Positions 4,545-28,179 of a stretch of DNA of 64,000 bases are shown here, one piece after another. The position numbers were made by a program, and so were the translations under genes. The stretch comes from an uncultured Clostridia bacterium. GTDB lineage: Bacteria; Acidobacteriota; Blastocatellia; HR10. How positions within the stretch are numbered: position 1 is the stretch's first letter; each line of letters begins with the position of its first letter. The DNA is taken from contig CAZTMT010000001.1 in the NCBI GenBank assembly GCA_964615335.1, positions 642-64,641 on the forward strand, in the 5' to 3' direction. Below the pieces are notes generated by a model, which was not told the DNA's origin, searched no databases, and saw only the letters and a list, made by a program, of their open reading frames with translations.

Positions 4545-4605
4545 AGTGTTCTGAGATTTGATGCGACGGGCCTCCGGAAAGACAGCGGGTGGGCGCGGCA
4601 CAGGT

Positions 4606-8399: not shown

Positions 8400-8405
8400 G
8401 CGCGC

Positions 8406-11582: not shown

Positions 11583-13108
11583 CTTCGTCCTCCCGGTGAA
11601 GAGGTCCTCCGCTCGCGCCTCTCCAAGGGCGCGAAATAGATGGGATTGGTGAGGGCGGTGATCCCTCTTTCGTCGCGCAGGTTGAGTCGGACCCATATGC
11701 CGGGTTCGGCGCTCCAGGGGAGGCGCTGCGAGAAATCCGGCGCGTCCACGCGAAGGCGAATCACCACGCGGCCGCCGGAGATGACCTCGACCATCTGCCC
11801 GGCTCCCCCCTTCACGTCAAGGTGAAGGGTGACGGGCTCGCCCGCGCGAGTGAGGGGGACCTCATCCCCCATCATGTAGCGACGGCCGCGCCCGTCCTCA
11901 GCGAAGAGGAAGAGATCGGGCCCTTCAGGCCCGCGCGTTTTGATGAAGACGCGGCCCGCTTTCAATCCTGCGAGAAGGGCGGGCTCGGAGAGTTCCGTGG
12001 CATAGACGACGGTCGTCGGGACGCCCATGACGTGATCCGGATGCTCGCCGCTGCCCGCGCGATGATCATCGCTGCCTCCGATGCCCGTGATCCGATAGCC
12101 TTCGTTGAGGCGCGCCTCCCAAAAGGGGATTCCGCTCAAAGGACCTTCGACGCGATTCCCGTTGATGATCTCGATCATATCCACCTTGCGGAAGTCGGTC
12201 GTCTCCGTCTCTTCCCATCCGCATCCCATGCATTGCTCGCCGGTCGGATGCGTCGGATGATTGATCGAGATCAGGCCCCCGGCGCGATGGACGTCATCCA
12301 AAATGTCGTTGATCGTTCGCCCCTGCCATCGCAGGCGAAAGTCAATGAAGGCGCTTGTGCCGTAGATGTTCGCGTGCCCCCGATAGGTCGTCAGCTCGCG
12401 CCCGGGCAGAAGCAGAAGCGCGGTGAAGTATTCCTGAAGGCGGCGCATTTCGGCGTGATGGCTCGTCGTGTTGTGATCAGTGAGAGCGAAGAAATCCAGG
12501 CCGCGAGCGGCAGCCGCCTGCACGACGCGAAAGACCGGACAGGGAACCAGCACTCCCTGCTCGTTGCGGCACCGTCCGTCGCTGTGCCCGCTGTGGGCAT
12601 GGAGATCGCCGCGGTACCATCCCGGACCCGCTTTCAGAACTCGAGGCGGACTCACGCCGGGCGTCGAGCACGCGCGCGATCGCGCCGGGACCCATCGGAT
12701 GCGGACCGTGTAGTGCGAGACCTGATCGGGGCGAATGTGCGGCACTCCGAGAAGAAGCCGCCACGTCCCGGCCGGCAGTTCTCCGGGCAGATAGGAAGGC
12801 GTAGCCTCCTCGCACGTCAGAAAGAAGCTCGTCCTCTCACTTCCACTCCAGCCGCGAAAGCGCACCGGATCGAACAGGCCGATATCCAGCGTCGTGCCCT
12901 CACCCCGGTGGGTATAGGTGTATTCGACCTCCAGGCGCTCCAGGGGCTCGGGGACGACGAATTCCCGCACGATATACGTCCCGTGATCGGCGCGCGTGAC
13001 CGTCCCGTGAAAGACGATCTCAGAAGGCTGGGGAGGAAATTGAGAAAAAGAGAGGGGAAAAACGAGGAGCCACCCGAAGGCGAGACACCCTCTCACCGTC
13101 CCAAGCAT
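11579..13108 (-). CDS. Secreted PHP-domain metal-dependent phosphoesterase (CehA/McbA family)
   Basis: WYRGDLHAHSGHSDG and ALTDHN His-rich PHP motifs, with an N-terminal signal peptide. Confidence 0.75.
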   Translation of the reverse strand: MLGTVRGCLAFGWLLVFPLSFSQFPPQPSEIVFHGTVTRADHGTYIVREFVVPEPLERLEVEYTYTHRGEGTTLDIGLFDPVRFRGWSGSERTSFFLTCEEATPSYLPGELPAGTWRLLLGVPHIRPDQVSHYTVRIRWVPARSRACSTPGVSPPRVLKAGPGWYRGDLHAHSGHSDGRCRNEQGVLVPCPVFRVVQAAAARGLDFFALTDHNTTSHHAEMRRLQEYFTALLLLPGRELTTYRGHANIYGTSAFIDFRLRWQGRTINDILDDVHRAGGLISINHPTHPTGEQCMGCGWEETETTDFRKVDMIEIINGNRVEGPLSGIPFWEARLNEGYRITGIGGSDDHRAGSGEHPDHVMGVPTTVVYATELSEPALLAGLKAGRVFIKTRGPEGPDLFLFAEDGRGRRYMMGDEVPLTRAGEPVTLHLDVKGGAGQMVEVISGGRVVIRLRVDAPDFSQRLPWSAEPGIWVRLNLRDERGITALTNPIYFAPLERRERRTSSPGGRR

Positions 13109-13168: not shown

Positions 13169-16100
13169 TCAGAAGTAGAACTTCAGCGCAAACTGCATGA
13201 CGCGCGGATCTCCGGCGAGGCTCCCGATGCGTCCGAAGGCGCCGCTGGAAGCGTTTCGCTCGGGAAGTCCGAACTGCGGGGTGTTGGTCATGTTGAACAT
13301 CTCCCAGCGGAACTCCAGGCGTCGGCCTTCGCCGAAGTACTCAAATGTGCGCGCGAGCGCGAAGTCGAAGTTCACCAGACCCGGCCCATAGACCGTGTTC
13401 CGTCCGCACGTTCCCAGTCGCGCCGGAGACGGCACGCGGAAGGCCGTCGTATCGAACCAGCGATCCACCGAGCGCTGGTCTTCGGGCAGGGTCGGATCGC
13501 GGAGGCAATCGGCGAGCGCGTTGACCATGCCTCCCCCGCGAGGTCCACCGATGGCCGTATCGTTCGCTCCCGCGCGGATCGTGAAGGGACGGCCCGTCCG
13601 CATCGTGGTGATGCCGCTGATCCGCCATCCTCCCAGAATATGCGCGAGGGCTCCCTCGTTCAAATAGGCGCGCCCGCGCCCGAAAGGCAGCTCGTAGTTG
13701 TAGGCGAGGACGAAGCGGTGGCGGTAATCGAAATCGCTCGGTCCGCGCCGCTCGCGGATGTTATGCGCGTTCTGAAGGAAGCTTCCCGAACCGCCGGTGA
13801 ACAGATGCTCCATGGCATAGTCAATGGACTTGGACCAGGTCCACGCGCCACGGAAGGCCAATCCGTGGCTGAAGCGCTTCTCCACCGTCACTTCCATCCC
13901 GTGGTAGCTCGAGTTCCCCATATTGTCCCGGTACTCGATCGGTCCCAGGTCCGGATAGGGGATGATCCCCGTGGGCGTCCCATCGGGATTGAAGAATTGC
14001 TGGTTGAGGTTGCGCAGGACGGAGAGATGCGTTCCTTTCGTCCCCACGTAATCAATCGTCGCGACGAGGTTGCCCGGCAGCAGCCGCTGGATGCCGAAGT
14101 TCCACTGATCCACCGTCGGAATCACCGCCTCGGGATTCACGGCGCGAAGTCGCACGTTGCGCGGATCCACGGCGCTCGGATCGAGCGAGAGATTGAAACC
14201 TGTGCGCAAGCGCATATTGTTGGCCGTCGTGTTGGGATTGGGAGCCGTCACCACGTTGTTGACGACCCAGGGGAGGTTGAGCCCGAGCTGATCCTCGCTT
14301 CCCGCGCGCTCAAAGAGCATGAAGAATCGGCCGTATCCGGTGCGCAGGACCGTATTCGGCGTCACGCGGTAGGCCAGCCCGATGCGCGGCGCGACATTGT
14401 TTTTGTCCGACTGCACGAGGCTCTTGCCCACCGGAGAAGAGTCGAATCCCGGGAAGGATCGGGCGGTGAACCGCCGTCCCGTCTTCGGATCCAGATTCGT
14501 CAGACGATCCCTCCCTTCGTAGGGCCATGTCGCGAAGTCGTATCGGAATCCGAGATTCATCGTGAGCTTCGGCGTGACCTTCCAATCGTCCTGCCAGAAG
14601 AAGGAGGCCATCCAGAGGCGCGCGTCCACGACATGCGGATTCGTCAGTTGAGCGGACGAGGGATAGCCGAGCAGGAAGTCCGCCATGCCGATGCCTGTGC
14701 GGTTCCCATCAAAGGTCCAGTCCCCGCGCAGCGCCGGCAGGTCCAGATAGATATTGCGCATGGGCAGACGCACATCCACGCCGAAGCGGAGTTGGTGCGG
14801 ACCGATCGTGAGGCTCATCATGTCCCACCACTGGAACTGGTTCGTGAATTGGAACTTGGGCAGGAAAACGGGCGAGCCCAGATGATCCAGCCCTCCCCCC
14901 TGACCGCCCGGAATCGTCTGCGTGCCCCCGCGCGCCTGAATGCGAATGGCCGGCAGGCCGCCACTGTAGAGCGGATCGTCCCGAACGCCCAGGATCCCGA
15001 ACTCGGCGAGCGTGTTCTTCCCAAACGGATCCTGCACCCCATTAGAGGCGTTGCGCCCCCATCCGAGCCGGAACTCATTGAGCGCCCGCGCTCCCAGCGT
15101 GCGATTCCATCCGATCACCGCCGCATGGCCTTTCATGAAGAGCCGACCGAAGGCCGATGTGGACGTCCCGTCAATGATCCCCCCGAACATTCCGGGAACG
15201 AAGCGGAACCGATCCGAGAAGGTGTAGCGCACAAAGAGGTTATTGTTCGCATCGACTTGCCAATCGCCGCGCACGGTGAACTTGTCCGTGTCGTCTATGA
15301 GCGTCGGCGTGCGCAGAAAATTGAAGACGTTTCCGAGAGGTCCCGAGCCGGGGAGATTGGGCAGAGGGACCATGTCGAGGATTCGCTTGGCAACCGGATC
15401 AATGCACTCGGGCGGGATCTTGTTGTCCTTGAAGGAGCCGTCGGGATTGAAGGCCGTGGGAACTTTCGCGCGACAGTCTCCCACGCGATCGAAGATCTTC
15501 GCATATCCGGGTGCGGAGAAGTCGCCGATGCGCTCGTTCGGCAACGGAACGTTCCCCAGGCGCGTCACGCCTCGCCGGATGCGCGTGCCTTCGTAGTCGA
15601 AGAAGAAGAAGGCGTGGTTCCGGACGATCGGCCCTCCCACATTGAAACCGAACTGATTCTGTCGGTTCTTCGCTTTCTTGGCTCCCGCGCGATTCAGGAA
15701 GAAGCTCGTCGCGTCGAAGATGTCGTTGCGCCCGAACCAGTAGGCCGTCCCGTGCAGTTCGTTCGTCCCGCTTTTGGTCGTCACACTGATGGCCGCGCCG
15801 GGACTGCGTCCGTACTCCGCCGAGTAGGGATTCGTGATGATCTTGAACTCCTGGATGGAATCCACCGACGGGCGCACGACCTGAGTGGTCAGCTCTTGCA
15901 CGTTCGTGGAGATGGAGTTGTTATCCACGCCGTCGAGGATGAAGTTGTTCTGCAGCGAGCGCACGCCGTGCACGTTGACTCCGCCTGTGCGTCCGGCGGC
16001 TGTCGCGCCCCCTTCCTCCGTGTAGCGATCCCCCTGAACGCCGGCGATCAGACCCATGAGATCATCCCAGTTGCGCATGCTGAGCGGCAGATCCGTCACC

Positions 16101-16528
16101 ATCCGGTTCTGCACGACAGCGCCGGGAGAGGCTTCTTGAGTCGCCAGCAGGGGGGTCTGAGCCTCGACGAGAACCGTCTCGGCGATCTCTCCGACTTCGA
16201 GCGTGAAATCCAAGCGCGCCCGCTGTCCCACCTCGAGGACGACGTTCTCGCGGACGAATTTCTTGAAGCCCTGGGCTTCTGCCGTGATCGTGTAGGTTCC
16301 AATGGGCAGACTCGCGAAGGTGTAATACCCCGCCTCGTTGGTGACCGCCGAATACTCGACGCCCGTCGCTTTATTCTTCGCCGTGATGGTCGCATTGGCG
16401 ATCACCGCACCGGTCGGGTCTGTGACCAGCCCCGTGAGACTGGCCGTGTGGATTTGCACCGCTCCGCACAGGATCCATCCCGCGCAGAGCATCCACAAAC
16501 AGGCGATCCCAAGCTGCTTGCGCCACAT
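13169..16528 (-). CDS. TonB-dependent outer-membrane receptor with N-terminal carboxypeptidase-regulatory-like domain
   Basis: Signal peptide, then LTGLVTDPTGAVIANATITAKNKATGVEYSAVTNEAGYYTFASLPIGTYTI (CarboxypepD_reg), a plug domain (VLVEAQTPLL...), a long beta-barrel, and a C-terminal ...FALKFYF aromatic terminus. Confidence 0.85.
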   Translation of the reverse strand: MWRKQLGIACLWMLCAGWILCGAVQIHTASLTGLVTDPTGAVIANATITAKNKATGVEYSAVTNEAGYYTFASLPIGTYTITAEAQGFKKFVRENVVLEVGQRARLDFTLEVGEIAETVLVEAQTPLLATQEASPGAVVQNRMVTDLPLSMRNWDDLMGLIAGVQGDRYTEEGGATAAGRTGGVNVHGVRSLQNNFILDGVDNNSISTNVQELTTQVVRPSVDSIQEFKIITNPYSAEYGRSPGAAISVTTKSGTNELHGTAYWFGRNDIFDATSFFLNRAGAKKAKNRQNQFGFNVGGPIVRNHAFFFFDYEGTRIRRGVTRLGNVPLPNERIGDFSAPGYAKIFDRVGDCRAKVPTAFNPDGSFKDNKIPPECIDPVAKRILDMVPLPNLPGSGPLGNVFNFLRTPTLIDDTDKFTVRGDWQVDANNNLFVRYTFSDRFRFVPGMFGGIIDGTSTSAFGRLFMKGHAAVIGWNRTLGARALNEFRLGWGRNASNGVQDPFGKNTLAEFGILGVRDDPLYSGGLPAIRIQARGGTQTIPGGQGGGLDHLGSPVFLPKFQFTNQFQWWDMMSLTIGPHQLRFGVDVRLPMRNIYLDLPALRGDWTFDGNRTGIGMADFLLGYPSSAQLTNPHVVDARLWMASFFWQDDWKVTPKLTMNLGFRYDFATWPYEGRDRLTNLDPKTGRRFTARSFPGFDSSPVGKSLVQSDKNNVAPRIGLAYRVTPNTVLRTGYGRFFMLFERAGSEDQLGLNLPWVVNNVVTAPNPNTTANNMRLRTGFNLSLDPSAVDPRNVRLRAVNPEAVIPTVDQWNFGIQRLLPGNLVATIDYVGTKGTHLSVLRNLNQQFFNPDGTPTGIIPYPDLGPIEYRDNMGNSSYHGMEVTVEKRFSHGLAFRGAWTWSKSIDYAMEHLFTGGSGSFLQNAHNIRERRGPSDFDYRHRFVLAYNYELPFGRGRAYLNEGALAHILGGWRISGITTMRTGRPFTIRAGANDTAIGGPRGGGMVNALADCLRDPTLPEDQRSVDRWFDTTAFRVPSPARLGTCGRNTVYGPGLVNFDFALARTFEYFGEGRRLEFRWEMFNMTNTPQFGLPERNASSGAFGRIGSLAGDPRVMQFALKFYF

Positions 16529-16700: not shown

Positions 16701-18164
16701 CTACAGGCGCGTCCATTCTTCGGGCCAGCGTTCGACGATGACTTTCTTCTCGGTGTAGAACTCGACGGCATCTCGACCCTGTCCGTGCGCGACGCCGAAG
16801 AAGCTCTCCTTCCATCCGCTGAAGGGGAAGAAGGCCATGGGCGCCGCGACGCCGACGTTGATGCCGATGTTGCCAGCGGGCACTTCGTATCGGAACTTGC
16901 GCGCGGCCGCGCCGTTGCGGGTGAAGATCGAAGCCATGTTGCCGTAGCTGTGGCGAGAGAGAATGGCGATGGCCTCATCCAGCGTCGCCGCGCGCATGAG
17001 GCTGAGAACGGGTCCGAAGATCTCCGTCTGCCAGACTTCGCTGCCCAGAGGGACGTCATCCAGAAGCGTCGGCTTGAGGAAGTTGCCGCGCTCGTAGTTG
17101 GGAATTCTCGCGTCGCGTCCATCCAGAAGCAGGGTTGCGCCTTCGCTCACCCCCCGAGCGATGAGGGCTTCGATCCGCGCCTTGCTCTCGCGCGTGATGA
17201 CCGGACCCATCTGGACGTCCTCCTCCAGCCCATAACCGACGCGAAGGGAGCGGGCGACCTCCGCGATGGCTTCGCGAAACGTCGCGTGCGCCTCTCCGAC
17301 AGTCACAGCGACCGAGACGGCCAGGCATCGCTGTCCGGCGCATCCGAACGCGCTCTCACTGATTACCCGCACGGCCATCTCCAGGTCCGCGTCCGGGAGA
17401 ACGACCACGTGATTTTTCGCGCCGCCCTGGCACTGAACGCGCTTCCCCTGGGCTGCTGCGCGCGCGTAGATGTATCGGGCCACAGGTGTCGAGCCGACGA
17501 AGCTCACCGCGCGCACCTCGGGATGGTCCAGGAGGGCGTCCACCGCCGCCTTCGTCCCATGCACGAGATTCACCACGCCCGGCGGCAGTCCCGTCTGTTC
17601 CACCAGCTCCAGCGCGCGCATGATCGAGAGCGGGACCTTCTCCGAGGGCTTCAGGATGAACGTGTTCCCGCACGCGATCGCATACGGGAGAAACCAGAAC
17701 GGCACCATGACCGGAAAGTTGAACGGCGTGATGGCGGCCACAACCCCCAGGGGCTCACGGATCATGTGCTCGTCAATGCCGCGCGCGACGTCTTCGAGAT
17801 TATATCCCTGCATGAGCAGGGGGATGCCGCAGGCGACTTCGATATTCTCGATCGTGCGGCGCAGTTCGCCTCGCGATTCGGCGAGCGTCTTTCCGTTCTC
17901 CATCGTGATCAGGCGGGCCAGCTCGTCTCCGTGCGCTTCAAAGAGGCGCTTGAGGGCAAAGAGGTACTGGGTGCGCTCCTCCGCGGGGGTGCGCCGCCAC
18001 TGGGGAAAAGCTGCCGCCGCGGCTTCCACGGCCCGCGCGACGTCGGCCTCTCCCGAGAGAGGAACTTCGGCGAGCACTTCCCCGGTCGCCGGATTGATGA
18101 CCGGCAGGTATTCGCTCGCCGTCGAAGGAACCCATCGTCCGTTGATGTAGTTCGAGAGTCGCAT
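16701..18164 (-). CDS. iolA: Methylmalonate-semialdehyde dehydrogenase (CoA-acylating), IolA/MmsA
   Basis: ALDH superfamily with the catalytic Cys region (FGCAGQRC) and [16 protein letters not shown] typical of MMSDH. It sits in an iol context. Confidence 0.8.
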
Positions 18165-18182: not shown

Positions 18183-19628
18183 TCACATCTCGCGCCTCTT
18201 CTGCGCGAGAGATTCCACCGGCCCCGAGGGTGCCTTCTCCTCAGGGCCAGAAGTTATCAACTCCAGATCGGGATCCTGCTGCCGGAAGGCCTCGAAGATC
18301 CGACGGGCCACCTCCCACTGCCCGATCAAAGGATGCACCAGAAGCGCCAGTTGCGCGAGCGTCGCTGAACGTTCCACCGCTGCGCGAATCACGAGGCGTT
18401 CATAAGCTTTCACCGAGAGGACGAGGCCCCGCACGGTCTCCGGCAAGCGCCCGACCGCCAGCGGATGAACTCCCTGTGAGGAGATCAGGCAAGGGACTTC
18501 GACGACATCATCCGACTCCAGATCCGCGATCGCTCCGCGATTGAGTGTGTTCACGACAAGACGTCGCGGTTCCGATCCCCAGAGCGCCATGAGCACATCC
18601 CGCGCGACGCGATGATAGCCCGTCGCCGCTTCGAAGGGATCTTCTCCCTCGAAAACCTCACCGCGCACGGCCGAATGCGCGCTTCCCTCGAGCTGGAGAT
18701 ACGAGGCCGAGCGATGGCGAAGATAAGCGCGGTAGAGGGCGAGGGCCTCCTGCAGGCGACCGGCTGCGATCTCCCGCACAAGATCTCGAAAGAGCTTCTC
18801 GTTGAGCTGTTCCAGTTCTTCCCCTCGACTCGCCCCCACGCGCCGCTGGTTCTCCAGCGCGCGAGCATGAGCGTAGTAGAAGAAGACGTACTCGGTGGGG
18901 ATGAGTCCGAGCGCGCGCAGGAGATCGGGATCGAACAGATCGGCCGGATAGAGGCGCCGCAAAAGCTCTTCATCCTGCAACAGCCGCGCCGTCTCATCCC
19001 GACCGCGCACGAGGACGGTGCGCACCCATCCCAGGTGATTGAGTCCGAAGTACTCGCACGCGATGGCCTCGGGAGGCTCCCCGAGCGCTCGCGCGATGCG
19101 GTGGAAGAGTTCGCCCGGAGTGTCACAAATCCCCAGCACGCGCAACTGCGTGTGTGTTGTGAGAGCTTGGGCGATCACGCCGGCCGGATTGGTGAAGTTG
19201 ATGATCCACGCCTGAGGATTCACACGCTCGATCCGGCGCGCGTACTGGAGCACGACGGGAATCGTGCGCAGGGCCATCGCCCATCCGCCCACACCTGTGG
19301 TCTCCTGTCCGACGAGGCCGTGTGCGATGGCCGTTCGTTCGTCGCGAGCGCGCGCGCGAAGGCCTCCGACGCGAATGCTCAAGATGATCGCGTCAGCCCC
19401 GGTCACAGCTTCTTCCACATTCGTCGCCACCGTCACGGCGAAGTCCCCTTTCGCCTGTCGGATCGCTTCGCGCCCCAAGACGGCCATCAGCTCGGCGCGC
19501 TCTTGGTCCAGATCGTACAGGACGACCTCGCTTATGCCCAGCCGCGTCTGCTGCTCGGCGAGTCCATAGAGGAGCAGAGGGGTGCGTACCCCTCCTCCCC
19601 CGATGAGCGCGAGTTTTCGAGACGTCAT
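18183..19628 (-). CDS. Family GH4 NAD+/Mn2+-dependent glycoside hydrolase
   Basis: N-terminal LALIGGGGVRTP Rossmann fold and INFTNPAGVIAQAL...LGICDTP matching the GH4 ICDxP catalytic-Cys motif. Confidence 0.8.
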   Translation of the reverse strand: MTSRKLALIGGGGVRTPLLLYGLAEQQTRLGISEVVLYDLDQERAELMAVLGREAIRQAKGDFAVTVATNVEEAVTGADAIILSIRVGGLRARARDERTAIAHGLVGQETTGVGGWAMALRTIPVVLQYARRIERVNPQAWIINFTNPAGVIAQALTTHTQLRVLGICDTPGELFHRIARALGEPPEAIACEYFGLNHLGWVRTVLVRGRDETARLLQDEELLRRLYPADLFDPDLLRALGLIPTEYVFFYYAHARALENQRRVGASRGEELEQLNEKLFRDLVREIAAGRLQEALALYRAYLRHRSASYLQLEGSAHSAVRGEVFEGEDPFEAATGYHRVARDVLMALWGSEPRRLVVNTLNRGAIADLESDDVVEVPCLISSQGVHPLAVGRLPETVRGLVLSVKAYERLVIRAAVERSATLAQLALLVHPLIGQWEVARRIFEAFRQQDPDLELITSGPEEKAPSGPVESLAQKRREM

Positions 19629-20563
19629 CCGTTCTCGGAGACCTCCTCTCTCTCAGCGCTCTCGATCTCTTCGGGCGTCGGGAAAGCGGCCACTCCGCCC
19701 AGCGCGCGCGTGGAGAGCGCCCCGCAGAGATTGGCGATCTTCAGACATCGCTCCGGGGACTCTCCGTGTAACCACGCGTAGAGAAATCCCGCATTGAAAC
19801 AGTCGCCGGCGCCTGTCGTATCCACGGGGATCGTGCGATAGGGCTTTTCGGCGAACAGCTCACCATGGTGGAGCAGCATCGCTCCGGCTGCCCCGCGCTT
19901 GAGCGCGATGACCGGAACACCTGTTTCGGCGAGCGCGCGCAGAGCGGCTGTGGGGTCGTGCTCCCCCGTCATCTCCGCAGCCTCCTGCTCGTTCGGGAAA
20001 AAGAGATCGAGCGCGCTGAGGGCACGTCGGCTCTCCCGAGCCCGAAGCCACTCGGGATGCCACCCTACATCCAGGGAGAGACTGGTCCCGTGCTCGTGCA
20101 GGAAGCGCCCCAGGGCGATGAGCACGGCCGGATCCGGCGCGCACGCCAGATGCACGTGTCGAGCGGCTGTCAGCTTCTTCCATGTCTCCGGCTCGGCCAG
20201 CAGCGCCGCAAGCGCGCGATTTGCCCCCATGTAGGTGAAGAACGTTCGCTCCCCTTCGTGCGAGATACTCACGGTCACCGCCGTCGGCTCCTCTTCGTGC
20301 CAGATGAGCCAGTGCGTCCCGACACCCCGGCTCTCCAATTTCTGCTTCACCCACGCTCCATCTTCGCGCCCAACCGGAGCCAGTAGACCCACGCGCATCT
20401 TGAGTCGGGCAAGCCCACACGCCGTGATGGCGGCTCCCCCTCCGACATCGCGCGCGAAGCGCGTGGCGAAAGCTTCCTGGCCCGGCTGCGGCCACTCCGG
20501 AAAGCCGCCCAGGACCAGATCAATGAAGAGATCTCCGACAGCGATGACGTCCCAGCTCTTCAT
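19625..20563 (-). CDS. PfkB-family carbohydrate kinase (ribokinase/KDG-kinase-like)
   Basis: C-terminal DTTGAGDCFNAGFLYAW PfkB signature-2. It is ATGA-coupled to the GH4 gene. Confidence 0.8.
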   Translation of the reverse strand: MKSWDVIAVGDLFIDLVLGGFPEWPQPGQEAFATRFARDVGGGAAITACGLARLKMRVGLLAPVGREDGAWVKQKLESRGVGTHWLIWHEEEPTAVTVSISHEGERTFFTYMGANRALAALLAEPETWKKLTAARHVHLACAPDPAVLIALGRFLHEHGTSLSLDVGWHPEWLRARESRRALSALDLFFPNEQEAAEMTGEHDPTAALRALAETGVPVIALKRGAAGAMLLHHGELFAEKPYRTIPVDTTGAGDCFNAGFLYAWLHGESPERCLKIANLCGALSTRALGGVAAFPTPEEIESAEREEVSENG

Positions 20564-20567
20564 CTCC

Positions 20568-21953
20568 TCACCGAGGGAGCGAAACGTCCCCCACCGCCTC
20601 CGGCACGAAAGGCCATTCTCCTTTTCGATAGGCTCTCCAGAAATACGCTCCCATGCCCAGAAGAAGCAATCCGAGACCCGCCAGGACGAAGATCCAGCCG
20701 CTGGAGATGAGAATGTAGATCCATCCCAGCAGGGCGATCACTACGGGCACCGGATAAAGCCACATGCGAAAAGGTCGGGCGATGTCGGGTCGAAAACGCC
20801 GGATCATCACGACGGCCATGACCTGAGCCAAGTACTGGATGATGATCTGAATGACCAGGAGCGCTTTGATGATTTCATCCAAGGCGAACCAGCAAGCGAG
20901 GGCTGAGAGAAGGCCGATCGTCACCAGCGAGAAGGCAGGGAAGCGTTTGGTCGGATGAAGCCGGGCGAAGGGAGCGAAGAACCGTCCCTCGACAGCCGCG
21001 GCATAGGGGACGCGCGAATATCCGAGCAGGATTGCGAAGATCGAACCGAGCGAAGCCCACAGGATCAAAGCCGTGACCGCGTGTCCGGCCCAGGGGCCAT
21101 AAATCCGCTCCATGAAGTCGGAGACGATGGAACTGCTCTGCATGGCCTCGCGCCAGGGGATGACGCCCAGGATCGTGACACTCATGGTGATGTACAGGGC
21201 CGCGACAGCAAGGATCGCCAGGATGATCGAGCGAGGGATCGTCGAGCCCGGGTTCTTCACTTCGCCTCCGAAGAGGCAGACGTTGAAATATCCCCCATAG
21301 CTGTACATGGCGATGAGCGTCGCGGCGCCCAGACCCGTGATGAATTCCCCAGAGATGTGAAACGCTCCGGCCGGGACGTCTGCGACGCGCTCCCATTGGA
21401 AAGACCGGAGCCCGGAGAGCACAACCCATGCGACAGTCGCCATGACGACCGTCCAGAGGGCAACCGAGAGCTTCCCCACCGAGCGAATGTCGCGATAAAG
21501 AAGGGCCGTGACCAGAAGACACAGACCCGCAGCCAGCAGCTTCGTCTCCCAGGGCGTCATCGCCGGCCAGAAGTATTTCGTATAGAGCGCGAAGCCGACC
21601 GCTCCCGACGCGATCGAAAGCGGCGCGATGAAAATCGTCTGCCAGATGTAGAGGAAACTCATCAGCCGGCCCCATCTCTGCGGACCATACGCCTGCTGCA
21701 GATAGAGATACGGTCCTCCCGCTCCGGGCATGGCCGCTCCCAATTCCGCCCAGACCAGTCCATCGCAGAGCGAGATGAGTGCCCCCACGACCCATCCGAT
21801 CAGGGCTTGCGGTCCCCCCATGGCCGCGATCATGATCGGGATCGTGATGAAAGGCCCGATCCCGATCATGTTGAGCATATTGGTCGAGGTCGCCTGCAAC
21901 AGGCCAATCCCTCGGATGAGGCCGGGATGATCGTTGGTCTCTTCGTGTTTCAT
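20568..21953 (-). CDS. APC-superfamily permease (amino acid/polyamine/organocation transporter)
   Basis: 461 aa with ~12 predicted TM segments, resembling the amino-acid/ethanolamine permease family. Confidence 0.7.
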   Translation of the reverse strand: MKHEETNDHPGLIRGIGLLQATSTNMLNMIGIGPFITIPIMIAAMGGPQALIGWVVGALISLCDGLVWAELGAAMPGAGGPYLYLQQAYGPQRWGRLMSFLYIWQTIFIAPLSIASGAVGFALYTKYFWPAMTPWETKLLAAGLCLLVTALLYRDIRSVGKLSVALWTVVMATVAWVVLSGLRSFQWERVADVPAGAFHISGEFITGLGAATLIAMYSYGGYFNVCLFGGEVKNPGSTIPRSIILAILAVAALYITMSVTILGVIPWREAMQSSSIVSDFMERIYGPWAGHAVTALILWASLGSIFAILLGYSRVPYAAAVEGRFFAPFARLHPTKRFPAFSLVTIGLLSALACWFALDEIIKALLVIQIIIQYLAQVMAVVMIRRFRPDIARPFRMWLYPVPVVIALLGWIYILISSGWIFVLAGLGLLLLGMGAYFWRAYRKGEWPFVPEAVGDVSLPR

Positions 21954-21977: not shown

Positions 21978-24668
21978 TCATCTTCGCGCGCGACGCAGGC
22001 TGATCATGTTGGCGAACAGCCGATAAGCTCCGGCCACGCCCGCCGGGAGTTGACGATAGAAGGCATAGGCCGTGTAGATGTAGATCCCGCGCCCGTATCG
22101 AGCCAGCAGCATCCCTCCGCGTTGCGGTTCCTGCCCGCGATCGTGCGACTCCAGCAGGGGGGTGTATCGCTCGTCCCACGTCGTCATGAATTTCGAACCG
22201 CGCTCTTCTACCCATCCCTCGAAGTCCGCCGGCGTGATCCGATTGGGCCAGGTGAAAGCGGGGTGCGTCGGAGCCAGGATCCTCACCGGAGCGTCCTCCT
22301 CGGAGACTTCTTCCGCGCGCGCCCCCAGAGTGTACGGATAGGGGCCAAAAGGCGCTTCGTCGAACTCCTGCGTTTGATACTGCACGATGAGAACTCCGCC
22401 GCGTTCGACATAGTCGAGCAAGCGGCGATTGTAGGCCTTCAGATCCTCCCTGACGGCATACGCGCGAATGCCGATCACAATGACATCGAACGCTTCGAGA
22501 TCGCCCGTGGCTAAATCCGATGGGCCGAGCAGTCGCACGGTGACGCCCAATTGCTCCAGGGCTTTGGGGACTTCGTCTCCAACCCCCATGACGTATCCGA
22601 CCCTCAGCCCCGGAGCTACGGTGACATCCACCCCTCGCAGCTCGATCTCCGCCGGGCGATAGAGATGTCGCGGCTCCAGCTCCCGGTAGGCGATCACCTG
22701 ATACCCTTCGGTGTATTCCTTCCCGTTGTATTGGGCGACAGCCTGCACGCGATAGACCTTGCCGGCCTCCACGCGCGACGGTCTGAGGGAGAAGGCGAAC
22801 GTCTGAATCTCTCCCTCGTGAGTGAAGCGAAACGTCACTTCCGGAGGAGAGACGCTCCATCCCTGAGGCGCGCGGAGCCGGACCGTCCCCTGCGCCGCGC
22901 CCTTCACGTTATTGCGCACGTCCACGCGCACGGGGTAGGGGAGTCGCGTCACCCCCAAGGGGATGATGCCCACCCGAGGAGAGACTGTCACACTGATGGG
23001 AGGAGCGACCATGAGGAGCCGACGCTGCTCTCCCCACGGACGATCCACCCACACCGTCTGCGCCGGTTGCGTCGCCGAGAGGGTGACCCCCTCAAGACGA
23101 TACGTGAAGACGCCCACGACCTCCGGCGGAGACCAGGGCAGGTTCGCATGCTCCGGCTTGTGGATCGTATAAACGGCATCGTGGTATTCCGAAGCCCGTG
23201 ACCAATAGGGGCGCGTGTATTCGGCATCTTCAGGGACGGTCACTTCGAAGCGAACGCGCGCTTGTTCGTTTCGTCCGAGGACGTTCAGTTCCTTGTGAAG
23301 CGCGCGCACGCGCCATCCCGCGGGAGTGCGCAAGGTGATCTCCACGGGTTCCAGACGGATGGGACTTCGGTTGGTCGCTGTCGCTGTGAGCGTGAAGCGC
23401 TGTCCCGGAATGGCGACCGAGAATGTCTCTCGAATTCGGAACCGCTGAGAATCCCCGGGAAGCCCCTCGCCCTCCGGACTCGGATCCACGAGAACGTCCA
23501 GAGCCAGGCCGAGGGCTTTATTCACGGCGTCCTCGAATTCTCGCTCCTTATTGCGGAGCAAAAAGAGAAGATGGTCCTTGGTTGCCTCATCCAGTGAGGC
23601 GCTCTGGACGCGCTCGATCAGAGAACGGGTCAGGCGCAGGCCCGCCGTGAGGTGCGGCGTGATGGTCCATGGATGCCGAGCGTCGAAAGCCGCGAGCGCT
23701 TCGTCCACAAGCCTCTGAATCTCGCTCACCTCCGCGCGGAGATCCAACCCTGGAGCAGCGAGTTTCGCCAGACCGAGCCAGCTCGGGTCGAGGCCCTCAA
23801 AGAGACTGGTCTCCTTTTCAACCTTCGGGAGCACTGTGTCCACGAGTCGGAGCGCGATGCGCGCCGAGCCGCGAGGAGCTCGCGCTTGGCCCGCTCCCTG
23901 CGAGCGCTGGCGGCTCAGGCCCTCGCGGCCGATCTCTCGATAGGAACGCCCGAGCAGAGGATCGTACGTTCCCGTTTCGATCTCCAGCGTGGGCGGTTCC
24001 GCGTCGCGATCGTTGAATCGGAAGGGAGCGACGTAGAGCTTCTTCGCCTGCCAGGGGCGTAATCCTTCGGCGAAATGCTCCGGGAAGCGACGGGGATCAG
24101 CGGCCGCCCGAAACGCTTCCCGCGTGAGGACGCCCGCAGCCTGATGGTTGCCATGCCCATCGCGAGGATCCCCCCGGAATCGCGCGATGATGATGTCAGG
24201 CCGATAGAGGCGAATGACGCGCACGACATCCCGCAAGGCCGTCTCATGTCCCCATTTCTGCAGCGTCTCATCGAGGCGCTTCGAAAATCCGAAGTCCACG
24301 ACGCGCGTGAAGAACTGATCCACGCCGTAGTACCGTCCGGCCGCCAGCAACTCCTCGGTGCGGAGAACACCGAGCGCATCGAAGAGCTCCGGCCCGATCA
24401 GATTCGCCCCTCCTTCGCCGCGCGTGAGCGTGAGCAGTCCCGTGCGGACTCCCTGCCCGCGGCTGAGCCAGGCCAAGAGCGCTTCGTTCTCATCATCCGG
24501 ATGGGCCGTCGTGTGCAGGACGGTGATCGTCGTGCGCAGTCGAAGAAGAGCCTGCCACACAGCGGCTGCATTCTGGTTCTCCACAATTTCCTGGACTTGA
24601 GGGCGGACGGATCCTCCGATCAGTCCGACAAAGAGACAGCTTATGAGTGCTCGCGAGATGTTCTTCAT
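21978..24668 (-). CDS. PIG-L/LmbE-family de-N-acetylase with ~600-aa C-terminal extension (secreted)
   Basis: Signal peptide, then VLHTTAHPDDENEALLAWL (AHPDDE zinc motif of PIG-L/MshB/BshB), followed by a long extra domain of unknown function. Confidence 0.75.
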   Translation of the reverse strand: MKNISRALISCLFVGLIGGSVRPQVQEIVENQNAAAVWQALLRLRTTITVLHTTAHPDDENEALLAWLSRGQGVRTGLLTLTRGEGGANLIGPELFDALGVLRTEELLAAGRYYGVDQFFTRVVDFGFSKRLDETLQKWGHETALRDVVRVIRLYRPDIIIARFRGDPRDGHGNHQAAGVLTREAFRAAADPRRFPEHFAEGLRPWQAKKLYVAPFRFNDRDAEPPTLEIETGTYDPLLGRSYREIGREGLSRQRSQGAGQARAPRGSARIALRLVDTVLPKVEKETSLFEGLDPSWLGLAKLAAPGLDLRAEVSEIQRLVDEALAAFDARHPWTITPHLTAGLRLTRSLIERVQSASLDEATKDHLLFLLRNKEREFEDAVNKALGLALDVLVDPSPEGEGLPGDSQRFRIRETFSVAIPGQRFTLTATATNRSPIRLEPVEITLRTPAGWRVRALHKELNVLGRNEQARVRFEVTVPEDAEYTRPYWSRASEYHDAVYTIHKPEHANLPWSPPEVVGVFTYRLEGVTLSATQPAQTVWVDRPWGEQRRLLMVAPPISVTVSPRVGIIPLGVTRLPYPVRVDVRNNVKGAAQGTVRLRAPQGWSVSPPEVTFRFTHEGEIQTFAFSLRPSRVEAGKVYRVQAVAQYNGKEYTEGYQVIAYRELEPRHLYRPAEIELRGVDVTVAPGLRVGYVMGVGDEVPKALEQLGVTVRLLGPSDLATGDLEAFDVIVIGIRAYAVREDLKAYNRRLLDYVERGGVLIVQYQTQEFDEAPFGPYPYTLGARAEEVSEEDAPVRILAPTHPAFTWPNRITPADFEGWVEERGSKFMTTWDERYTPLLESHDRGQEPQRGGMLLARYGRGIYIYTAYAFYRQLPAGVAGAYRLFANMISLRRARR

Positions 24669-24808: not shown

Positions 24809-27800
24809 TCAGAAGTAAAGCTTCAGCCCAAGCTGAATCTCACGAGCCGGACGCTCGGGATTCCGCAGACTCGTCGTGCGTCCGAACGTGCCGCTGGCCA
24901 CGTTCGAATCGGGCGCGGCGAACTGCGGCGTGTTCCACACGTTGAAGAACTCGACGCGGAACTCCAGATAGCGCTCCTCGGTGAAGCGAATCTTCTTGAA
25001 CAATGAGATGTCCCAGTTGTGGAATGCCCAGGAGCTGATCGTGTTCGGACCGCACGTGCCGAAGGTGAAAGGCGCCGGGATGCGGAACGCGTTCTTGTCA
25101 AAATACTGGGCGAGCGTGGGCTTGAAGCCCGCCGGGAAAGGATTCCCCACGCAATCTGCGCGCGAGGTGTGGCCCGGACCCGTATTGCTCCGATCCGGAG
25201 CGTAGATCGTGATGGGAACACCGCTTGTCGAGCTCACGATCCCATTGAGCTGCCAATCGCCCAGGATCTTCGCCCACGCGCCCTCGTTCAGGTAAGGCTG
25301 GCGCGGCCCGAAGGGCAGCTCCCACACCCAGTTGACAACGAGGCGATGACGTTGATCAAACGGCAAGCGCCCGTAATCGGCGCGCATGTCGTAGACGTTC
25401 TGCGGGAGGTTCTGAGGATTCACATTTCCGAACGTTGGGGAGAGATGTTCGCTCACGGTCCCGAGCGCCTTCCCCAATGTGTAGGCGACGTTGAAGGCCA
25501 GTCCGTGCGAGTAGCGCTTGTTCACCGTGATCTGTAACGAGTTATAGTTGGACGTCGCATCGGTGCCGAGCCACTGGATGTAGGCGCAGGAACCGGGGGC
25601 GAGGCAGAAGTCCGGATAGGGGAAGACGACGGGTCCGACGCCGGGCGTGACGATCCGTCCCTGATTGAGGTTGCGCAGCTTTCGGATCTTGCGGTTGTAG
25701 TTGCCGACAAACGAGACGTCCACCGAGAGGTCGTTCGTGATGAGGAACTGCGGCCCGAAGCTGACCTGCTGCGAGTACGGCGAACGCTCATGAAAACTGC
25801 GCGCGCGAATCTGGAGCCGTCGGACATCCACGGTCGCGGGCGCCGGCAGGAATCCATCGCGCAACAGAAGCAGTGGCGGGGCATTGCTCGGAACGCTCAG
25901 ACTCGCGTCAATGACCTGCGGGGGATTCAACTGGAGCATGCTCTCGCTCCCCATGCGATCCATCACCTGGTAGAAGATGCCCACTCCCCCTCTCCAGACG
26001 AGCCGCGACGTCGGAGCATACGCGAAGCCAAGCCGCGGGGCGAAGTTGTTGCGGTCCGGATGCACGAGCGTGCGCGAGAAAAGTCCCTGCCCCTTGGGAG
26101 CCGGTTGAATCGGCGGGAAGGGATTGGGCGCCGCCGTGATCAATCCTCCGCGCCCTCCGTTGGCCGCGGGATCGAAGTTCGTCGTCAGGTCGTTCCGCTC
26201 GATGAAGGGCGTGAAGTATTCGTACCGCACGCCGTAGGTGAGGGTGAGCTTGGGACTGACGCGCCAGCTATCCTGGACGTACCACATGAATCCATCAATG
26301 TAGTTGTGGACAACATGAGGCGTCGTCGTCTGCTGGAAGGAGGCCAAGCCCAGAAGCAGATTCGCGAATCCGTCTCCCGTCCAGAACGTGTTGAAAGCCA
26401 GCTCGCCATGGGGCGCGCGCACGTCCAGGAAGTTGTTCACAAGCCGCTTATACTCGAAGCCGAACTTGTAGGAGTGAGCCCCCCGAATGTAGGAGACGTT
26501 GTCCAGAACCTGATAGACCTGCGAGACCTGAAATTGCGGGCGCCAGCCGGAGGTTCCCAGGAAGCTGTACCCCGCGACGCGAATCCACGGCAGGCCGTAG
26601 ACGAATTCGTTGTTGGGAGCATTCTTCAAACCGAATTCGGCCGCCGCACTCCCTTTGGGCGCCAGCGGTCGGGACCAGCTCTTGATGCGGTTGAATCCGA
26701 AGCGCAGGTCGTTGAGCAGGTTCGGAGAGAACGTGTGATCCCATGTGAGGGCGAGGACCTGACCGCGGACCTCGCTGTTGGCGCTGAAGCCTCCGGTGGC
26801 CAGCGGATTCAGGAAGGGACCGCGCTCGATCATCGCTCGTTCGTCGAAGAAATCGTAGACGCCGAAGATGACGTCCTTCTCCCCGAGACGATGATCGAGG
26901 CGCACGTCGAAGGAATCGTTATCGCTGGGAATGTTGATCGAAGAGACGAACGTGAACGGAGAGATGCCCGGCGCATTGGGCAGCGGATAGAGCGATGCGA
27001 ACTTCACGCCGACGGGATCGGCGCAGGGACGCCCATCGGTGCGCATGGCGTTGAGGTTGAGGCGATTCGGAGGAGAGATGCAGGGAGCGATGACCGACAG
27101 GAAGTCCGGAGGCGCCGTCAGAACCGGACGCTCGCTGAAATCGCCCTGCCGCATCCGAGCCGTCGGGACTGTCCCCGTCAGCGTCGTCTCTCGGCGCGAG
27201 CGCAGCCCCTGGTAGTCGAAGAACCAGAAGGTTCGGTCTTTGAGGAGGGGACCACCGACGGCGAATCCCGCCTGATTGCGAAGGAATTCCCCTTTGGGGA
27301 TCACGCGGGAGCCATCGGGCCGACGCCCGGCCGCGTTGGCGAAGAAATCGGCGGCATCCAGATTATCGTTGCGATGGAACCACCAGGCCGTCCCATGCAG
27401 GTCGTTACTGCCGGAGCGAATCTCGGCATTGATCACAGCGCCCTGAAACCACCCGAACTCCGCATTGTAGGTGCGCGTCTGCACGCGAAATTCGCGCAGC
27501 GCATCCGGAGGCGGTTGCACCACCTGCGGGCTCCGCTCCTGCGCGTTGGTCGAGAACGAGTTGTTGTCCACGCCGTTCAGGGCGAAGTAGTTCTGAAGCG
27601 AGAAGTTCCCATTGACGTTGATCTTGGCCTCGCGCGGATTCCCTCCGCTGGGCGTCGGCAGAGCGCCTGGCGCCAGCAGGATCAAATCCGAATACCGTCG
27701 GCCATCCAGGGGGAGGTCCACGATCCGTCGCTGCTCGACAACGGCCCCCACGTCCGCACTCTGCGTCTGCAGGACGGGAACCGTCTCGGTGACGATCATC

Positions 27801-28179
27801 TCCTCGGTGATCGTTCCCGGTTGCAGAGTCACATCCACGCGCAGACGCTCCTGCACGTGCACGATGACGTTGCTCCGAACAGCCGTCTGAAATCCGGGAG
27901 CCGTCACCCGGACTTCATACGGGCCGGGACGAAGAGCGGGGGTGACGTAGGACCCCGTCGCATCGGTGGTGACCTTCACGCTCGTCCGAAGCTCCAGGTG
28001 CGTGATCGTCACCTCAGCGTTGGGGACCACAGCTCCGGTCGGATCGGTGACCGTTCCCACGATGACCCCCGTGTTGATCTGAGCGCGAAGCCCTGTGCCG
28101 CTGAGGAGAGTCAACAGGATCAGCCACACAGAGCCGGCGAAGATCAAGCGACCACGTGAGGCTCGAACTCTCTCGCACA
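24809..28179 (-). CDS. TonB-dependent outer-membrane receptor (paralog, CarboxypepD_reg N-domain)
   Basis: Same architecture as 13169-16528, ending ...LGLKLYF. I place the start at ATG 28177-28179, preceded by AGGAGG with 5-nt spacing; the track start is an upstream GTG. Confidence 0.85.

Follow-up and report, generated by a model that had tools for sequence, protein, structure and literature searches.

A kinase-coupled GH4 enzyme beside inositol catabolic genes in an acidobacterial locus: a candidate 6-phospho-glycosidase for glycosyl-inositols

The closest described relatives of the system considered here are enzymes of glycoside hydrolase family 4 (GH4) that act on phosphorylated sugars. 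GlvA and BglT, of the 6-phospho-α-glucosidase and 6-phospho-β-glucosidase types respectively, both require 6-phospho substrates (PMC10628242). In characterised GH4 systems these substrates come from a phosphotransferase system (PTS). In E. coli, ChbF cleaves only the de-N-acetylated disaccharide made by ChbG, in which glucosamine-6-phosphate (GlcN6P) is linked to N-acetylglucosamine (GlcNAc), and its -1 subsite holds 6-phosphoglucose by means of C172, N150, H203, Y258, T113, E112, R96, R282 and N173 (PMC13197890). Here we describe a GH4 gene at positions 18183-19628 (minus strand) of a 64,000-nucleotide stretch of acidobacterial DNA, referred to as the window (contig CAZTMT010000001.1, positions 642 to 64,641, of assembly GCA_964615335.1; class Blastocatellia in GTDB). 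The gene overlaps that of a PfkB-family sugar kinase and is followed at once by a gene of inositol catabolism. We put a probability of roughly 0.5 on the reading, based on sequence comparison, that its product is a kinase-dependent phospho-glycosidase that would release inositol from a glycosyl-inositol.

The open reading frame (ORF) at 18183-19628 is intact, starts with ATG and encodes a bona fide GH4 enzyme of 481 residues. It matches PF02056 (1.2e-40) and PF11975 (3.1e-44), with both profiles covered over their full length and scores far above the gathering cut-offs. The N-terminal glycine-rich NAD+-binding loop is present (K5-LALIGGGGVRTP) and aligns with IGGGSSYTP of ChbF, BglT and 1S6Y. 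The motif G166-I-C168-D169-T-P171 (context LGICDTPGE; 19116-19133, minus strand), in which the metal-ligand cysteine is followed by aspartate, is invariant in 23 of 23 family members, as are the metal ligands C168 and H198 and the tyrosine base Y247, which align with C172, H203 and Y258 of ChbF. The AlphaFold2 model, made with 23 family sequences in the alignment, has a mean predicted local distance difference test score (pLDDT) of 90.8, with disorder confined to the last ~20 residues, and its best 49 Foldseek matches are all GH4, with target-normalised TM-scores (TMt) of up to 0.92. Residues 463-481 (18183-18240) form a C-terminal extension of ~20 residues with pLDDT below 50 and no counterpart in homologues, which span 94% of the query. 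The original prediction had assigned the gene to GH4 from its GICDTP motif, and the two Pfam domains, the motif itself and a TMt of 0.90 to solved GH4 structures bear this out. It had also called the cysteine catalytic; from the structures of GlvA and BglT, we take this residue to be the metal-ligand cysteine of GH4 instead. Hydrolysis is predicted to follow the NAD+/Mn2+ redox-elimination chemistry of the family.

Amongst the evidence that the enzyme belongs to the phospho-specific branch of GH4 is its -1 subsite. Pairwise and multiple alignments show that eight of the nine ChbF residues are kept, namely R93, E109, T110, N147, C168, H198, Y247 and R268 (ChbF R96, E112, T113, N150, C172, H203, Y258 and R282), the ninth, N173, being replaced by Asp169. 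Two of these are particularly informative. Arg93 (19350-19352, minus strand) and Arg268 (18825-18827, minus strand; invariant in the family) have equivalents in every phospho-type GH4 aligned over those regions, and the equivalents are missing from the four non-phospho GH4s in the alignment, E. coli MelA and enzymes of Rhizobium, Enterococcus and Haloarcula. Because the ChbF-type subsite and the two phospho-type arginines are conserved, the enzyme very probably needs a 6-phosphorylated sugar, and such a subsite therefore weighs against a glucuronide substrate.

Similarity searches place the enzyme among its relatives. The best matches of a phmmer search of the PDB are 6-phospho-β-glucosidases (1S6Y, 6e-64; 5C3M, 1e-63; Thermotoga maritima BglT, 9e-59); 6-phospho-α-glucosidases come next (6WBT, 6e-57; GlvA, 2e-47; down to 7e-44), and the α-galacturonidase, α-glucosidase and α-glucuronidase entries are weakest (~1e-20 to 2e-15). 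Foldseek gives TMt values of 0.90-0.92 with BglT, 1S6Y and Gan4C, 0.80-0.86 with the 6-phospho-α-glucosidases, and 0.70-0.76 with LplD, AglA and TM0752, the lowest values of the GH4 structures. At E ≤ 0.001 the query has more than 7,000 matching proteins, a count of all relatives and not of the subfamily; the best 120 of them are 55-78% identical to it and, where named, are called '6-phospho-beta-glucosidase', their sources being Blastocatellia, other Acidobacteria and one metagenome-assembled genome (MAG) of candidate division WOR-3.

Within the 6-phospho-glycosidase branch, the enzyme is best treated as representing a third phospho-specific subfamily, because signature and clade tests fail for both the β-specific (ChbF/BglT) and the α-specific (GlvA) subfamilies. 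A neighbour-joining tree was built from 404 columns with limited sampling (ChbF, two other annotated β enzymes, partial 1S6Y and BglT, a PTS-linked 6-phospho-α-glucosidase and MelA). The acidobacterial and Sphingomonas GH4s formed one clade in 200 of 200 bootstraps when the Sinorhizobium meliloti homologue was left out, and support was 90% once this homologue, encoded on pSymB and 38% identical, had been added. The clade is sister to the β group, and not nested in it, in 68% of bootstraps, and it joins the 6-phospho-α enzyme in none of the 200. Identity to characterised enzymes is about 28-34% for the β type and 24-27% for the α type. The original prediction had named firm clustering with 6-phospho-β-glucosidases, coupled with that activity alone, as the outcome that would tell against it, and the placement is divided on the first point: those are indeed the nearest characterised enzymes, yet the family forms a separate, well-supported sister clade that carries CDTP.

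The signatures around the metal ligands were re-derived from the sequences in hand. The family has GICDTP.E, with Cys-Asp-Thr-Pro invariant, whereas all five aligned β enzymes carry CN[VI]P; CD[MQ]P is found in all four 6-phospho-α-glucosidases examined (1U8X, 6WBT, 6VC6 and a PTS-linked Cetobacterium enzyme), and CH.V in the four aligned non-phospho GH4s. The α-glucuronidase GH4s themselves presumably also have a CH signature. The aspartate after the cysteine has reportedly been proposed, for GlvA, as the acid for an α-linked leaving group. The motif after the metal-ligand histidine, GLNHLGW, is likewise α-like (GLNH[FY]GW in α enzymes), the β enzymes having GLNH(M/L/F) followed by VF, SF, VY or IF. 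The active site is thus a mosaic, in which α-like CD.P.E and GLNHxGW are combined with a β-like NFTNPAG. A further feature is a family-specific insertion of ~40 residues in the region of residues ~285-337 (18618-18776, minus strand), which in the alignment is absent from ChbF, 1S6Y, BglT, the 6-phospho-α-glucosidase and MelA; Y299, Y302, R306, Y310, E314, P331, F332 and G337-Y-H-R340 are invariant in this region, which is a candidate for a new aglycone (+1) subsite. What defines the subfamily is the combination of CDTP and GLNHLGW with the 285-337 insertion, an APC permease and a PfkB gene whose overlap with that of the GH4 is obligatory.

Three established assignments were considered and set aside. 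Plain membership of the ChbF/BglT/LicH type (EC 3.2.1.86) does not agree with CDTP in place of CN[VI]P, with the position outside that clade or with the lack of a PTS partner. For the GlvA/AglB/MalH type (EC 3.2.1.122), the CD.P and GLNHxGW signatures fit, but the bootstrap support is 0 of 200, the NFTNPAG motif is of the other type and identity is 24-27%. An α-glucuronidase or α-galacturonidase of the TM0752/LplD type would be at odds with the weakest E-values and TMt, with CD instead of CH and with the presence of both phospho-type arginines.

The gene immediately upstream (19625-20563, minus strand) encodes a 312-residue PfkB-family sugar kinase (PF00294, 163.6 bits), a proposed glycoside 6-kinase. 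The ATG of the GH4 gene (19628-19626) and the TGA of the kinase gene (19627-19625) share a 4-nucleotide ATGA overlap, and the frames overlap in 72 of 74 loci, with -4 the commonest class (a set extended by the window and earlier loci, with start codons placed heuristically). The coupling to a PfkB kinase proposed from the window alone is thus upheld. The kinase is neither a typical ribokinase nor a typical 2-keto-3-deoxygluconate (KDG) kinase: its best PDB match is ribokinase (3e-22), with ribokinase equivalog scores far below the cut-offs, models for KDG kinase give 42-60 bits against cut-offs of 400-440, and the best NCBIfam equivalog of any kind gives 131 bits against 330, so that none reaches its cut-off. 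Upstream of the kinase lies a gene (20568-21953, minus strand; PF13520/PF00324) for a 461-residue APC-superfamily permease, of a class made up of amino-acid and amine carriers according to Pfam and NCBIfam, and a proposed inner-membrane importer of a cationic glycoside.

For comparison, neighbourhoods were drawn from exact-protein look-ups, three GTDB loci, an annotated plasmid record and 80 metagenomic loci found with the family alignment. Where a metagenomic locus extends 1 kb or more upstream of GH4 (65 loci), PfkB is the adjacent upstream gene, in the same orientation, in 60, and the permease is found upstream of PfkB-GH4 in 46 of the 49 with at least 2.5 kb. No PTS gene occurs in any annotated neighbourhood of the family. 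The simplest reading is that the kinase supplies a 6-phospho-glycoside to the GH4, because there is no PTS, the PfkB is coupled and this branch of GH4 requires the phosphate. We regard it as likely that the kinase acts first and that the GH4 requires the phosphate it adds. The idea that the kinase phosphorylates the released sugar or KDG is probably wrong, since a phospho-type GH4 implies that the kinase comes first and the KDG-kinase scores are so low.

Variants of the module occur. A sister system on plasmid pRmeGR4d of S. meliloti GR4 (L016, 350655-351959 region) has a GntR(UTRA) regulator divergent from GH4, PfkB and an ABC sugar importer; the sister GH4 of this pSymB type is 38% identical and has the signature CDGA. 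In a Blastocatellia locus (L006), a hydantoinase/carbamoylase-type amidase (TIGR01879, 406 bits) lies between PfkB and GH4, with a patatin-like lipase and a myo-inositol oxygenase (MIOX) a few kb downstream (sites 8394-9695 and 16900-17745), and an amidase- or peptidase-type hydrolase is similarly inserted in L011. In a Bryobacterales MAG (L008), PfkB-GH4 (7030-8925, minus strand) is divergent from a GT4 gene and a small BshB2-like PIG-L gene (9039-11365, plus strand), the latter giving 54 bits to the BshB2 model, which is below its cut-off, and a truncated GH1-like ORF is next to them. This arrangement is more suggestive of the synthesis or turnover of a glucosamine (GlcN)-X compound than of scavenging.

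The second line of evidence is the company that the module keeps. The gene for a 487-residue CoA-acylating (methyl)malonate-semialdehyde dehydrogenase with IolA function (16701-18164, minus strand) begins 18 nucleotides past the GH4 stop and scores 584.4 bits against a TIGR01722 cut-off of 448.5, which confirms the adjacency to iolA noted originally. Flanks of 12 kb or more are available for 23 of the metagenomic loci; of these, 14 have IolB, C, D, E or G or MIOX within 10 kb, 16 have a large PIG-L and 15 a TonB-dependent-type receptor; it should be noted that these fractions are not to be read as statistics, because the metagenomic loci are not phylogenetically independent. In two phyla, and in six or more different gene orders, the triad of permease, kinase and GH4 has genes of inositol catabolism beside it. 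The order IolD, TonB-dependent receptor, PIG-L, APC, PfkB, GH4, IolA is shared by the window and three other loci (L003, L007 and L021) and is rearranged in L012. Other metagenomic loci have APC-PfkB-GH4-LacI-IolB-IolE-IolG with PIG-L and the receptor on the opposite strand, IolG-IolE-IolD-IolB-LacI divergent from APC-PfkB-GH4-receptor-GH92, or IolG-APC-PfkB-GH4-IolA; in other Acidobacteria, APC-PfkB-GH4-receptor is accompanied by MIOX in place of the iol genes. In Sphingomonas parapaucimobilis YK209, the orthologues (GH4, WP_347091810, 50%; PfkB, WP_347091811, 41%; APC 52% and a CehA/McbA-family protein 41% identical) occur in the order GH4-PfkB-APC, MurR/RpiR-receptor-CehA/McbA-GH92, iolG, iolC-iolD-iolE-iolB. 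That the association recurs in two phyla, in varying arrangements and with two inositol routes, argues strongly for a functional link between the GH4 module and inositol catabolism. The obvious form of that link is that the module probably releases inositol, and inositol is the aglycone towards which we lean. Cleavage of a sugar-inositol bond, as originally envisaged, thus has strong comparative support from the inositol-gene context; the part of that proposal that concerned a glucuronic acid (GlcA)-inositol has not stood up, given the distance of the uronidase GH4s and the phospho-type arginines.

As to the sugar, glucosamine is favoured because of the co-occurrence of PIG-L, the amine-class permease, the ChbG/ChbF precedent and the types of regulator. 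The PIG-L/LmbE gene of the window (21978-24668, minus strand; PF02585 and PF10633) encodes a secreted, 896-residue deacetylase or amidase with an NPCBM-associated domain and the motif AHPDDE; its best NCBIfam matches are to Mca, BshB1 and MshB and are weak (43 bits against a cut-off of 277), as are the PDB matches of the PIG-L domain (LnmX, 5e-10). The architecture of PIG-L domain, NPCBM-associated domain and a C-terminal region of ~200 residues with no domain match recurs in ~30 related loci. The proteobacterial versions of the system are accompanied by MurR/RpiR (Sphingomonas) or UTRA-GntR (S. meliloti) regulators, types which commonly sense amino-sugar phosphates. Glycosylphosphatidylinositol (GPI) anchors and some fungal glycosyl inositol phosphorylceramides (GIPCs) are built on GlcN-α-inositol. 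This unit is also the core of mycothiol, in which the natural bond is α, and all characterised LmbE/PIG-L members act on GlcNAc or N-acyl-GlcN cores, such as GlcNAc-phosphatidylinositol, GlcNAc-inositol, GlcNAc-malate, mycothiol conjugates and others (PMC4101496). A chitobiose or GlcNAc context was considered and rejected: queries with E. coli NagA and NagB found nothing in the 80 loci or the window at the cut-offs applied, although distant non-orthologous deaminases would escape such a search. Acceptance of the GlcA-inositol of plant GIPCs is unlikely, because the uronidase GH4s are the most distant, the two phospho-type arginines are kept and GlcA lacks an O6 to phosphorylate. For glucosamine as the sugar and for α as the anomer, taken separately, we would put the chances at about even.

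A route can be proposed in which TonB-dependent receptors would take up a glycosyl-inositol glycoconjugate, candidates being mycothiol, GPI glycans and the head groups of fungal or plant GIPCs, which would then be trimmed in the periplasm by PIG-L, a GH38 α-mannosidase and a PHP-type metallohydrolase. The APC permease would import the remaining cationic core, most likely GlcN-α-myo-inositol, the PfkB kinase would phosphorylate O6 of the sugar, and the GH4 would cleave the glycosidic bond by NAD+/Mn2+ redox-elimination to give GlcN-6-phosphate and free myo-inositol, which the surrounding IolB, IolC, IolD and IolA would consume. The periplasmic α-mannosidases (GH38 here, GH92 elsewhere), the metallohydrolase and the other glycosidases may fit trimming of head groups before import of the core; GH92, GH2, GH29 and GH101-like enzymes are carried by other loci. 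The amidase- or peptidase-type inserts of L006 and L011 would suit N-acyl decorations such as those of mycothiol. With every detail of GlcN6P-α-inositol cleavage included, the model is tentative. Equally tentative is the widest form of the proposal, in which the ~30-kb locus would resemble a polysaccharide utilization locus directed at inositol-glycoconjugate head groups (mycothiol, GPI anchors, fungal and plant GIPCs, phosphatidylinositol mannosides). Its universal core of APC, PfkB and CDTP-type GH4 would be a new cytoplasmic route of GlcN-inositol cleavage via a 6-phospho intermediate, with a new specificity, 6-phospho-α-D-glucosaminyl-myo-inositol hydrolase, widespread in soil and hot-spring Acidobacteria and some Alphaproteobacteria, and the CehA/McbA-type metallohydrolase and an orphan protein of 453 residues would be new periplasmic enzymes of head-group processing.

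Several observations weigh against this proposal. The NFTNPAG motif is of β type (α enzymes have NYSNPAA), and in overall sequence and fold the enzyme is nearer to β- than to α-specific phospho-glycosidases. No inositol gene lies within 10 kb in nine of the 23 long loci, and the chance, of the order of 1%, that a random gene has an iol gene within 10 kb of it is our own rough estimate. L010 holds PfkB-GH4 alone, and related members may handle other GlcN-X compounds, as in L008. There is no PIG-L in the annotated Sphingomonas stretch of ~52 kb around the GH4, an absence consistent with substrates in which GlcN is naturally de-acetylated. Plant GIPCs carry GlcA, not GlcN, on inositol (PMC11907402). 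Within the 64-kb window, tblastn found no match for iolG or iolE (Sphingomonas queries), MIOX, nagA or nagB, and no aldolase is among the annotated genes of the locus, although no search was aimed at IolJ. Full-text literature searches found no description of a GH4-PfkB-APC system; they also gave no bacterial enzyme that cleaves GlcN-inositol, nor a pathway from such head groups to inositol.

Four other readings have to be weighed against a kinase-dependent enzyme acting on a glycosyl-inositol. One is that the GH4 is a 6-phospho-β-glucosidase of the ChbF/BglT type that acts on β-disaccharides phosphorylated by the kinase, for example GlcN6P-β-1,4-GlcNAc (chitobiose after deacetylation by PIG-L; compare Thermococcus Dac and E. 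coli ChbG/ChbF) or cellobiose-6'-phosphate, the inositol genes being neighbours for regulatory or historical reasons only. Among characterised enzymes, those of this type come closest to it in sequence (6e-64 to 1e-58) and fold (TMt 0.90), and NFTNPAG is a motif of β type; the family groups with the β enzymes against the 6-phospho-α enzyme and MelA in 68% of bootstraps, the source annotations read 6-phospho-beta-glucosidase, and the pairing of deacetylase and GH4 mirrors that of ChbG and ChbF. Nevertheless, CN[VI]P is replaced by invariant CDTP, GLNHxGW is of α type, and the family, at just 30-34% identity, makes up a clade of its own and has a large conserved insertion. Neither the 80 loci nor the window yielded a chitinase, GH20, nagA or nagB, and chance would not readily account for linkage to iol genes or MIOX in many arrangements across two phyla, so that we consider a conventional β-glucosidase unlikely. 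Alternatively, the inositol genes might be explained by inositol-containing parent glycoconjugates or by regulon sharing, and the GH4, still a 6-phospho-glycosidase dependent on the kinase, would act on an amino-glycoside with another aglycone, be it GlcN-malate from bacillithiol, a glycosylated amino acid or another GlcN-X. The long loci that have no inositol genes (9 of 23), the GT4 and small, BshB-like PIG-L that accompany PfkB-GH4 in L008, the amidase- or peptidase-type hydrolases in L006 and L011, and a permease related to amino-acid and amine carriers (weakly to FrlA) would all suit such a substrate. Against it, the triad is interleaved with iol genes (iolA 18 nucleotides after GH4; LacI-iolB-iolE-iolG in many loci), three inositol routes or arrangements recur, and no catabolic genes specific for malate or an amino acid recur in the clusters; we judge a non-inositol aglycone distinctly unlikely.

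The remaining two readings change the chemistry. If the GH4 hydrolysed non-phosphorylated GlcA- or GlcN-inositol, with the kinase then phosphorylating the released sugar or KDG, the inositol context would be equally well explained; PfkB kinases commonly act on monosaccharides, and GlcA-inositol is the core of plant GIPCs (PMC11907402). Set against this are R93 and R268, which are invariant and, in the alignment, confined to phospho-specific GH4s, the uronidase GH4s as the most distant matches, with CH where the family has CD, the KDG-kinase scores (42-60 bits against cut-offs of 400-440), the lack of a 6-OH in GlcA, and a locus without any recognised gene of a uronate pathway, all of which make this order of events very improbable. 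The last reading is that the enzyme is no glycosidase and performs redox-elimination on a phosphorylated aminocyclitol or inosamine (rhizopine- or aminoglycoside-like) imported by the permease, with the product entering the iol pathway. A carbocyclic ring could in principle undergo C3 oxidation, C2 deprotonation and C1 elimination, the permease and the inositol linkage fit a cationic cyclitol, and the large insertion suggests a substrate pocket unlike those of known GH4s. However, the -1 subsite keeps its residues for a 6-phospho-pyranose (with the exception of N173, here Asp169), GlcNAc and N-acyl-GlcN are the only cores on which PIG-L enzymes are known to act (PMC4101496), the periplasmic α-mannosidases and other glycosidases of the loci point to glycans, and the reaction would be without precedent. 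We therefore hold it to be the most far-fetched of the four, and retain the release of inositol from a glycosyl-inositol, after phosphorylation by the kinase, as the preferred reading.

The window is housekeeping outside a ~30-kb series of minus-strand genes to which the GH4 gene belongs. At the head of this series is a LacI-family regulator (32187-33230; Pfam LacI and Peripla_BP), orthologues of which (64-75% identity) occur between GH4 and iolB, or beside APC, in many metagenomic loci. It is followed by IolB (31337-32182; TIGR04378, 344.9 bits against a cut-off of 205), by IolC, the 5-dehydro-2-deoxygluconokinase and second PfkB protein of the locus (30255-31268; TIGR04382, 398.7 against 300), by IolD (28365-30227; TIGR04377, 965.5 against 715) and by a TonB-dependent-receptor-like outer-membrane barrel (24809-28186; CarboxypepD_reg and OMP_b-brl_4). 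Then come PIG-L, APC, PfkB, GH4 and IolA, with intergenic gaps of 24, 4, -4 and 18 nucleotides. A consensus scan found no terminator-like site on the minus strand inside this block, a weak result in that counts are within ~1 standard deviation of those in shuffled sequences. Beyond IolA are a second TonB-dependent-receptor-like outer-membrane protein (13169-16528; Pfam), a secreted CehA/McbA-family (PHP-type) metallohydrolase (11579-13108; NF038032, 275 bits against 80), a secreted GH38 α-mannosidase (8406-11582; Pfam N-terminal, middle and C-terminal GH38 domains), a secreted or anchored conserved protein of 453 residues that matches nothing in Pfam or NCBIfam (7038-8399), a Zn-dependent alcohol dehydrogenase (6019-7041; ADH_N and ADH_zinc_N) and a monosaccharide-type ABC transporter ATPase (3033-4682), which in L012 occurs in the same order and is followed by a permease and a binding protein; all are on the minus strand. 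The likely start of the α-mannosidase is an internal Met that gives 1058 residues, the length at which it is called in L001, and a signal-like sequence follows this Met. From the translations read by eye, signal-peptide-like N-termini are present in PIG-L, the metallohydrolase, GH38 (from the internal Met) and the 453-residue protein, and are lacking in GH4 and the kinase.

The alcohol dehydrogenase is possibly an inositol or inosose dehydrogenase: its best NCBIfam match is IolM, the scyllo-inosose 3-dehydrogenase of the Thermotoga-type route, at 213 bits, which is under the cut-off of 450. Since the window has neither canonical iolG nor iolE, and no iolJ among the annotated genes, inositol breakdown may here be split or follow a non-canonical route. 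The CehA/McbA-type protein, possibly a phosphoesterase of head groups, has no sequence relative in the PDB. The hydrolase is accompanied in each group by a TonB-dependent receptor and an α-mannosidase, the latter of family GH38 in Acidobacteria and GH92 in Sphingomonas (L015, 2160-3662), and the 453-residue protein is syntenic in L003 and L012, between the α-mannosidase (or the receptor) and the Zn-dependent alcohol dehydrogenase. A tetratricopeptide repeat (TPR) protein (33382-34824, plus strand) adjoins the LacI regulator, and TPR-repeat ORFs upstream of APC-PfkB-GH4 form a cluster across 15 related loci (for example L053, 413-1951); apart from such a TPR protein, clustering of the flanking ORFs revealed no other high-frequency unknown partner. 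Just outside the catabolic island are a PhoR/PnpS-like sensor histidine kinase (35247-36377, minus strand; 316 bits against a cut-off of 400) and a homologue of phosphate-selective porin O/P (41607-43181, minus strand).

Inositol glycoconjugates are very abundant. Were the proposal correct, GH4 would gain a new class of substrate, and a dedicated, translationally coupled kinase would explain how bacteria without a PTS for the purpose feed phospho-dependent GH4s. The widespread annotation '6-phospho-beta-glucosidase' would be corrected, and a route would be provided for the turnover in soil of carbon from fungal, plant and actinobacterial membranes. Even if the inositol model is wrong, the family is still a clean case of a distinct kinase-coupled subfamily of GH4.

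It is useful, finally, to set the locus beside the known systems that it most resembles. With E. coli ChbF it shares the GH4 family and fold and the 6-phospho-sugar -1 subsite, in the residue pairs from R96/R93 to R282/R268 given above, the tyrosine base amongst them. As with ChbG, an upstream deacetylase is proposed to provide the GH4 with a GlcN-6-phosphate glycoside. ChbF, however, is only 28-30% identical, has CNIP in place of CDTP, lacks the ~40-residue insertion and receives a substrate phosphorylated by the PTS, not by PfkB after import by APC; ChbG is a cytoplasmic YdjC-type protein that belongs to a chitobiose context, in contrast to the secreted PIG-L and inositol context here. BglT of T. 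maritima and the Geobacillus 6-phospho-β-glucosidases (1UP6/1UP7, 1S6Y and 5C3M) are the best matches in sequence (6e-64 to 1e-58) and structure, with a common NAD+/metal site and the NFTNPAG and GQETxG motifs. They differ in that the enzyme of the window belongs to a separate clade, has Asp where they have Asn after the metal-ligand cysteine, has GLNHLGW and not GLNH(M/L)(V/S)F, has the NAD loop GGGGVRTP and not GGGSSYTP, and carries the extra insertion. The 6-phospho-α-glucosidases of the GlvA/AglB type (1U8X, 6WBT, 6VC6 and 6DUX) have Cys-Asp-x-Pro and GLNHxGW at the catalytic centre, with a glutamate two residues past the former in 6WBT and 6VC6, and both -1-subsite arginines (one full-length sequence was aligned); the requirement for a 6-phosphate is also common to them, as a prediction in the case of the window. 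The similarity is lower, though, the two were never grouped in bootstraps, NYSNPAA stands in place of NFTNPAG, and an α-glucoside PTS takes the part of the kinase.

The logic of the operon is that of the frl/fra type, in which a permease admits a cationic or zwitterionic sugar conjugate that, while still intact, receives a phosphate on O6 from a PfkB kinase and is then cleaved. The permease and kinase of the window are weakly similar to FrlA and FrlD, with scores far below the cut-offs (97 against 800 bits and 60 against 247 bits, respectively), and cleavage in those operons is by a SIS-domain deglycase, not a GH4. Lastly, the PIG-L-family enzymes MshB and Mca of mycothiol metabolism generate the proposed intermediate, GlcN-α-1-inositol, by deacetylation or amidase action (PMC4101496). 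They are, however, small, cytoplasmic proteins with biosynthetic and detoxifying roles, and the GlcN-inositol is recycled and not cleaved, whereas the PIG-L of the window is a secreted, multidomain protein of 896 residues, encoded just ahead of the permease, kinase and GH4.

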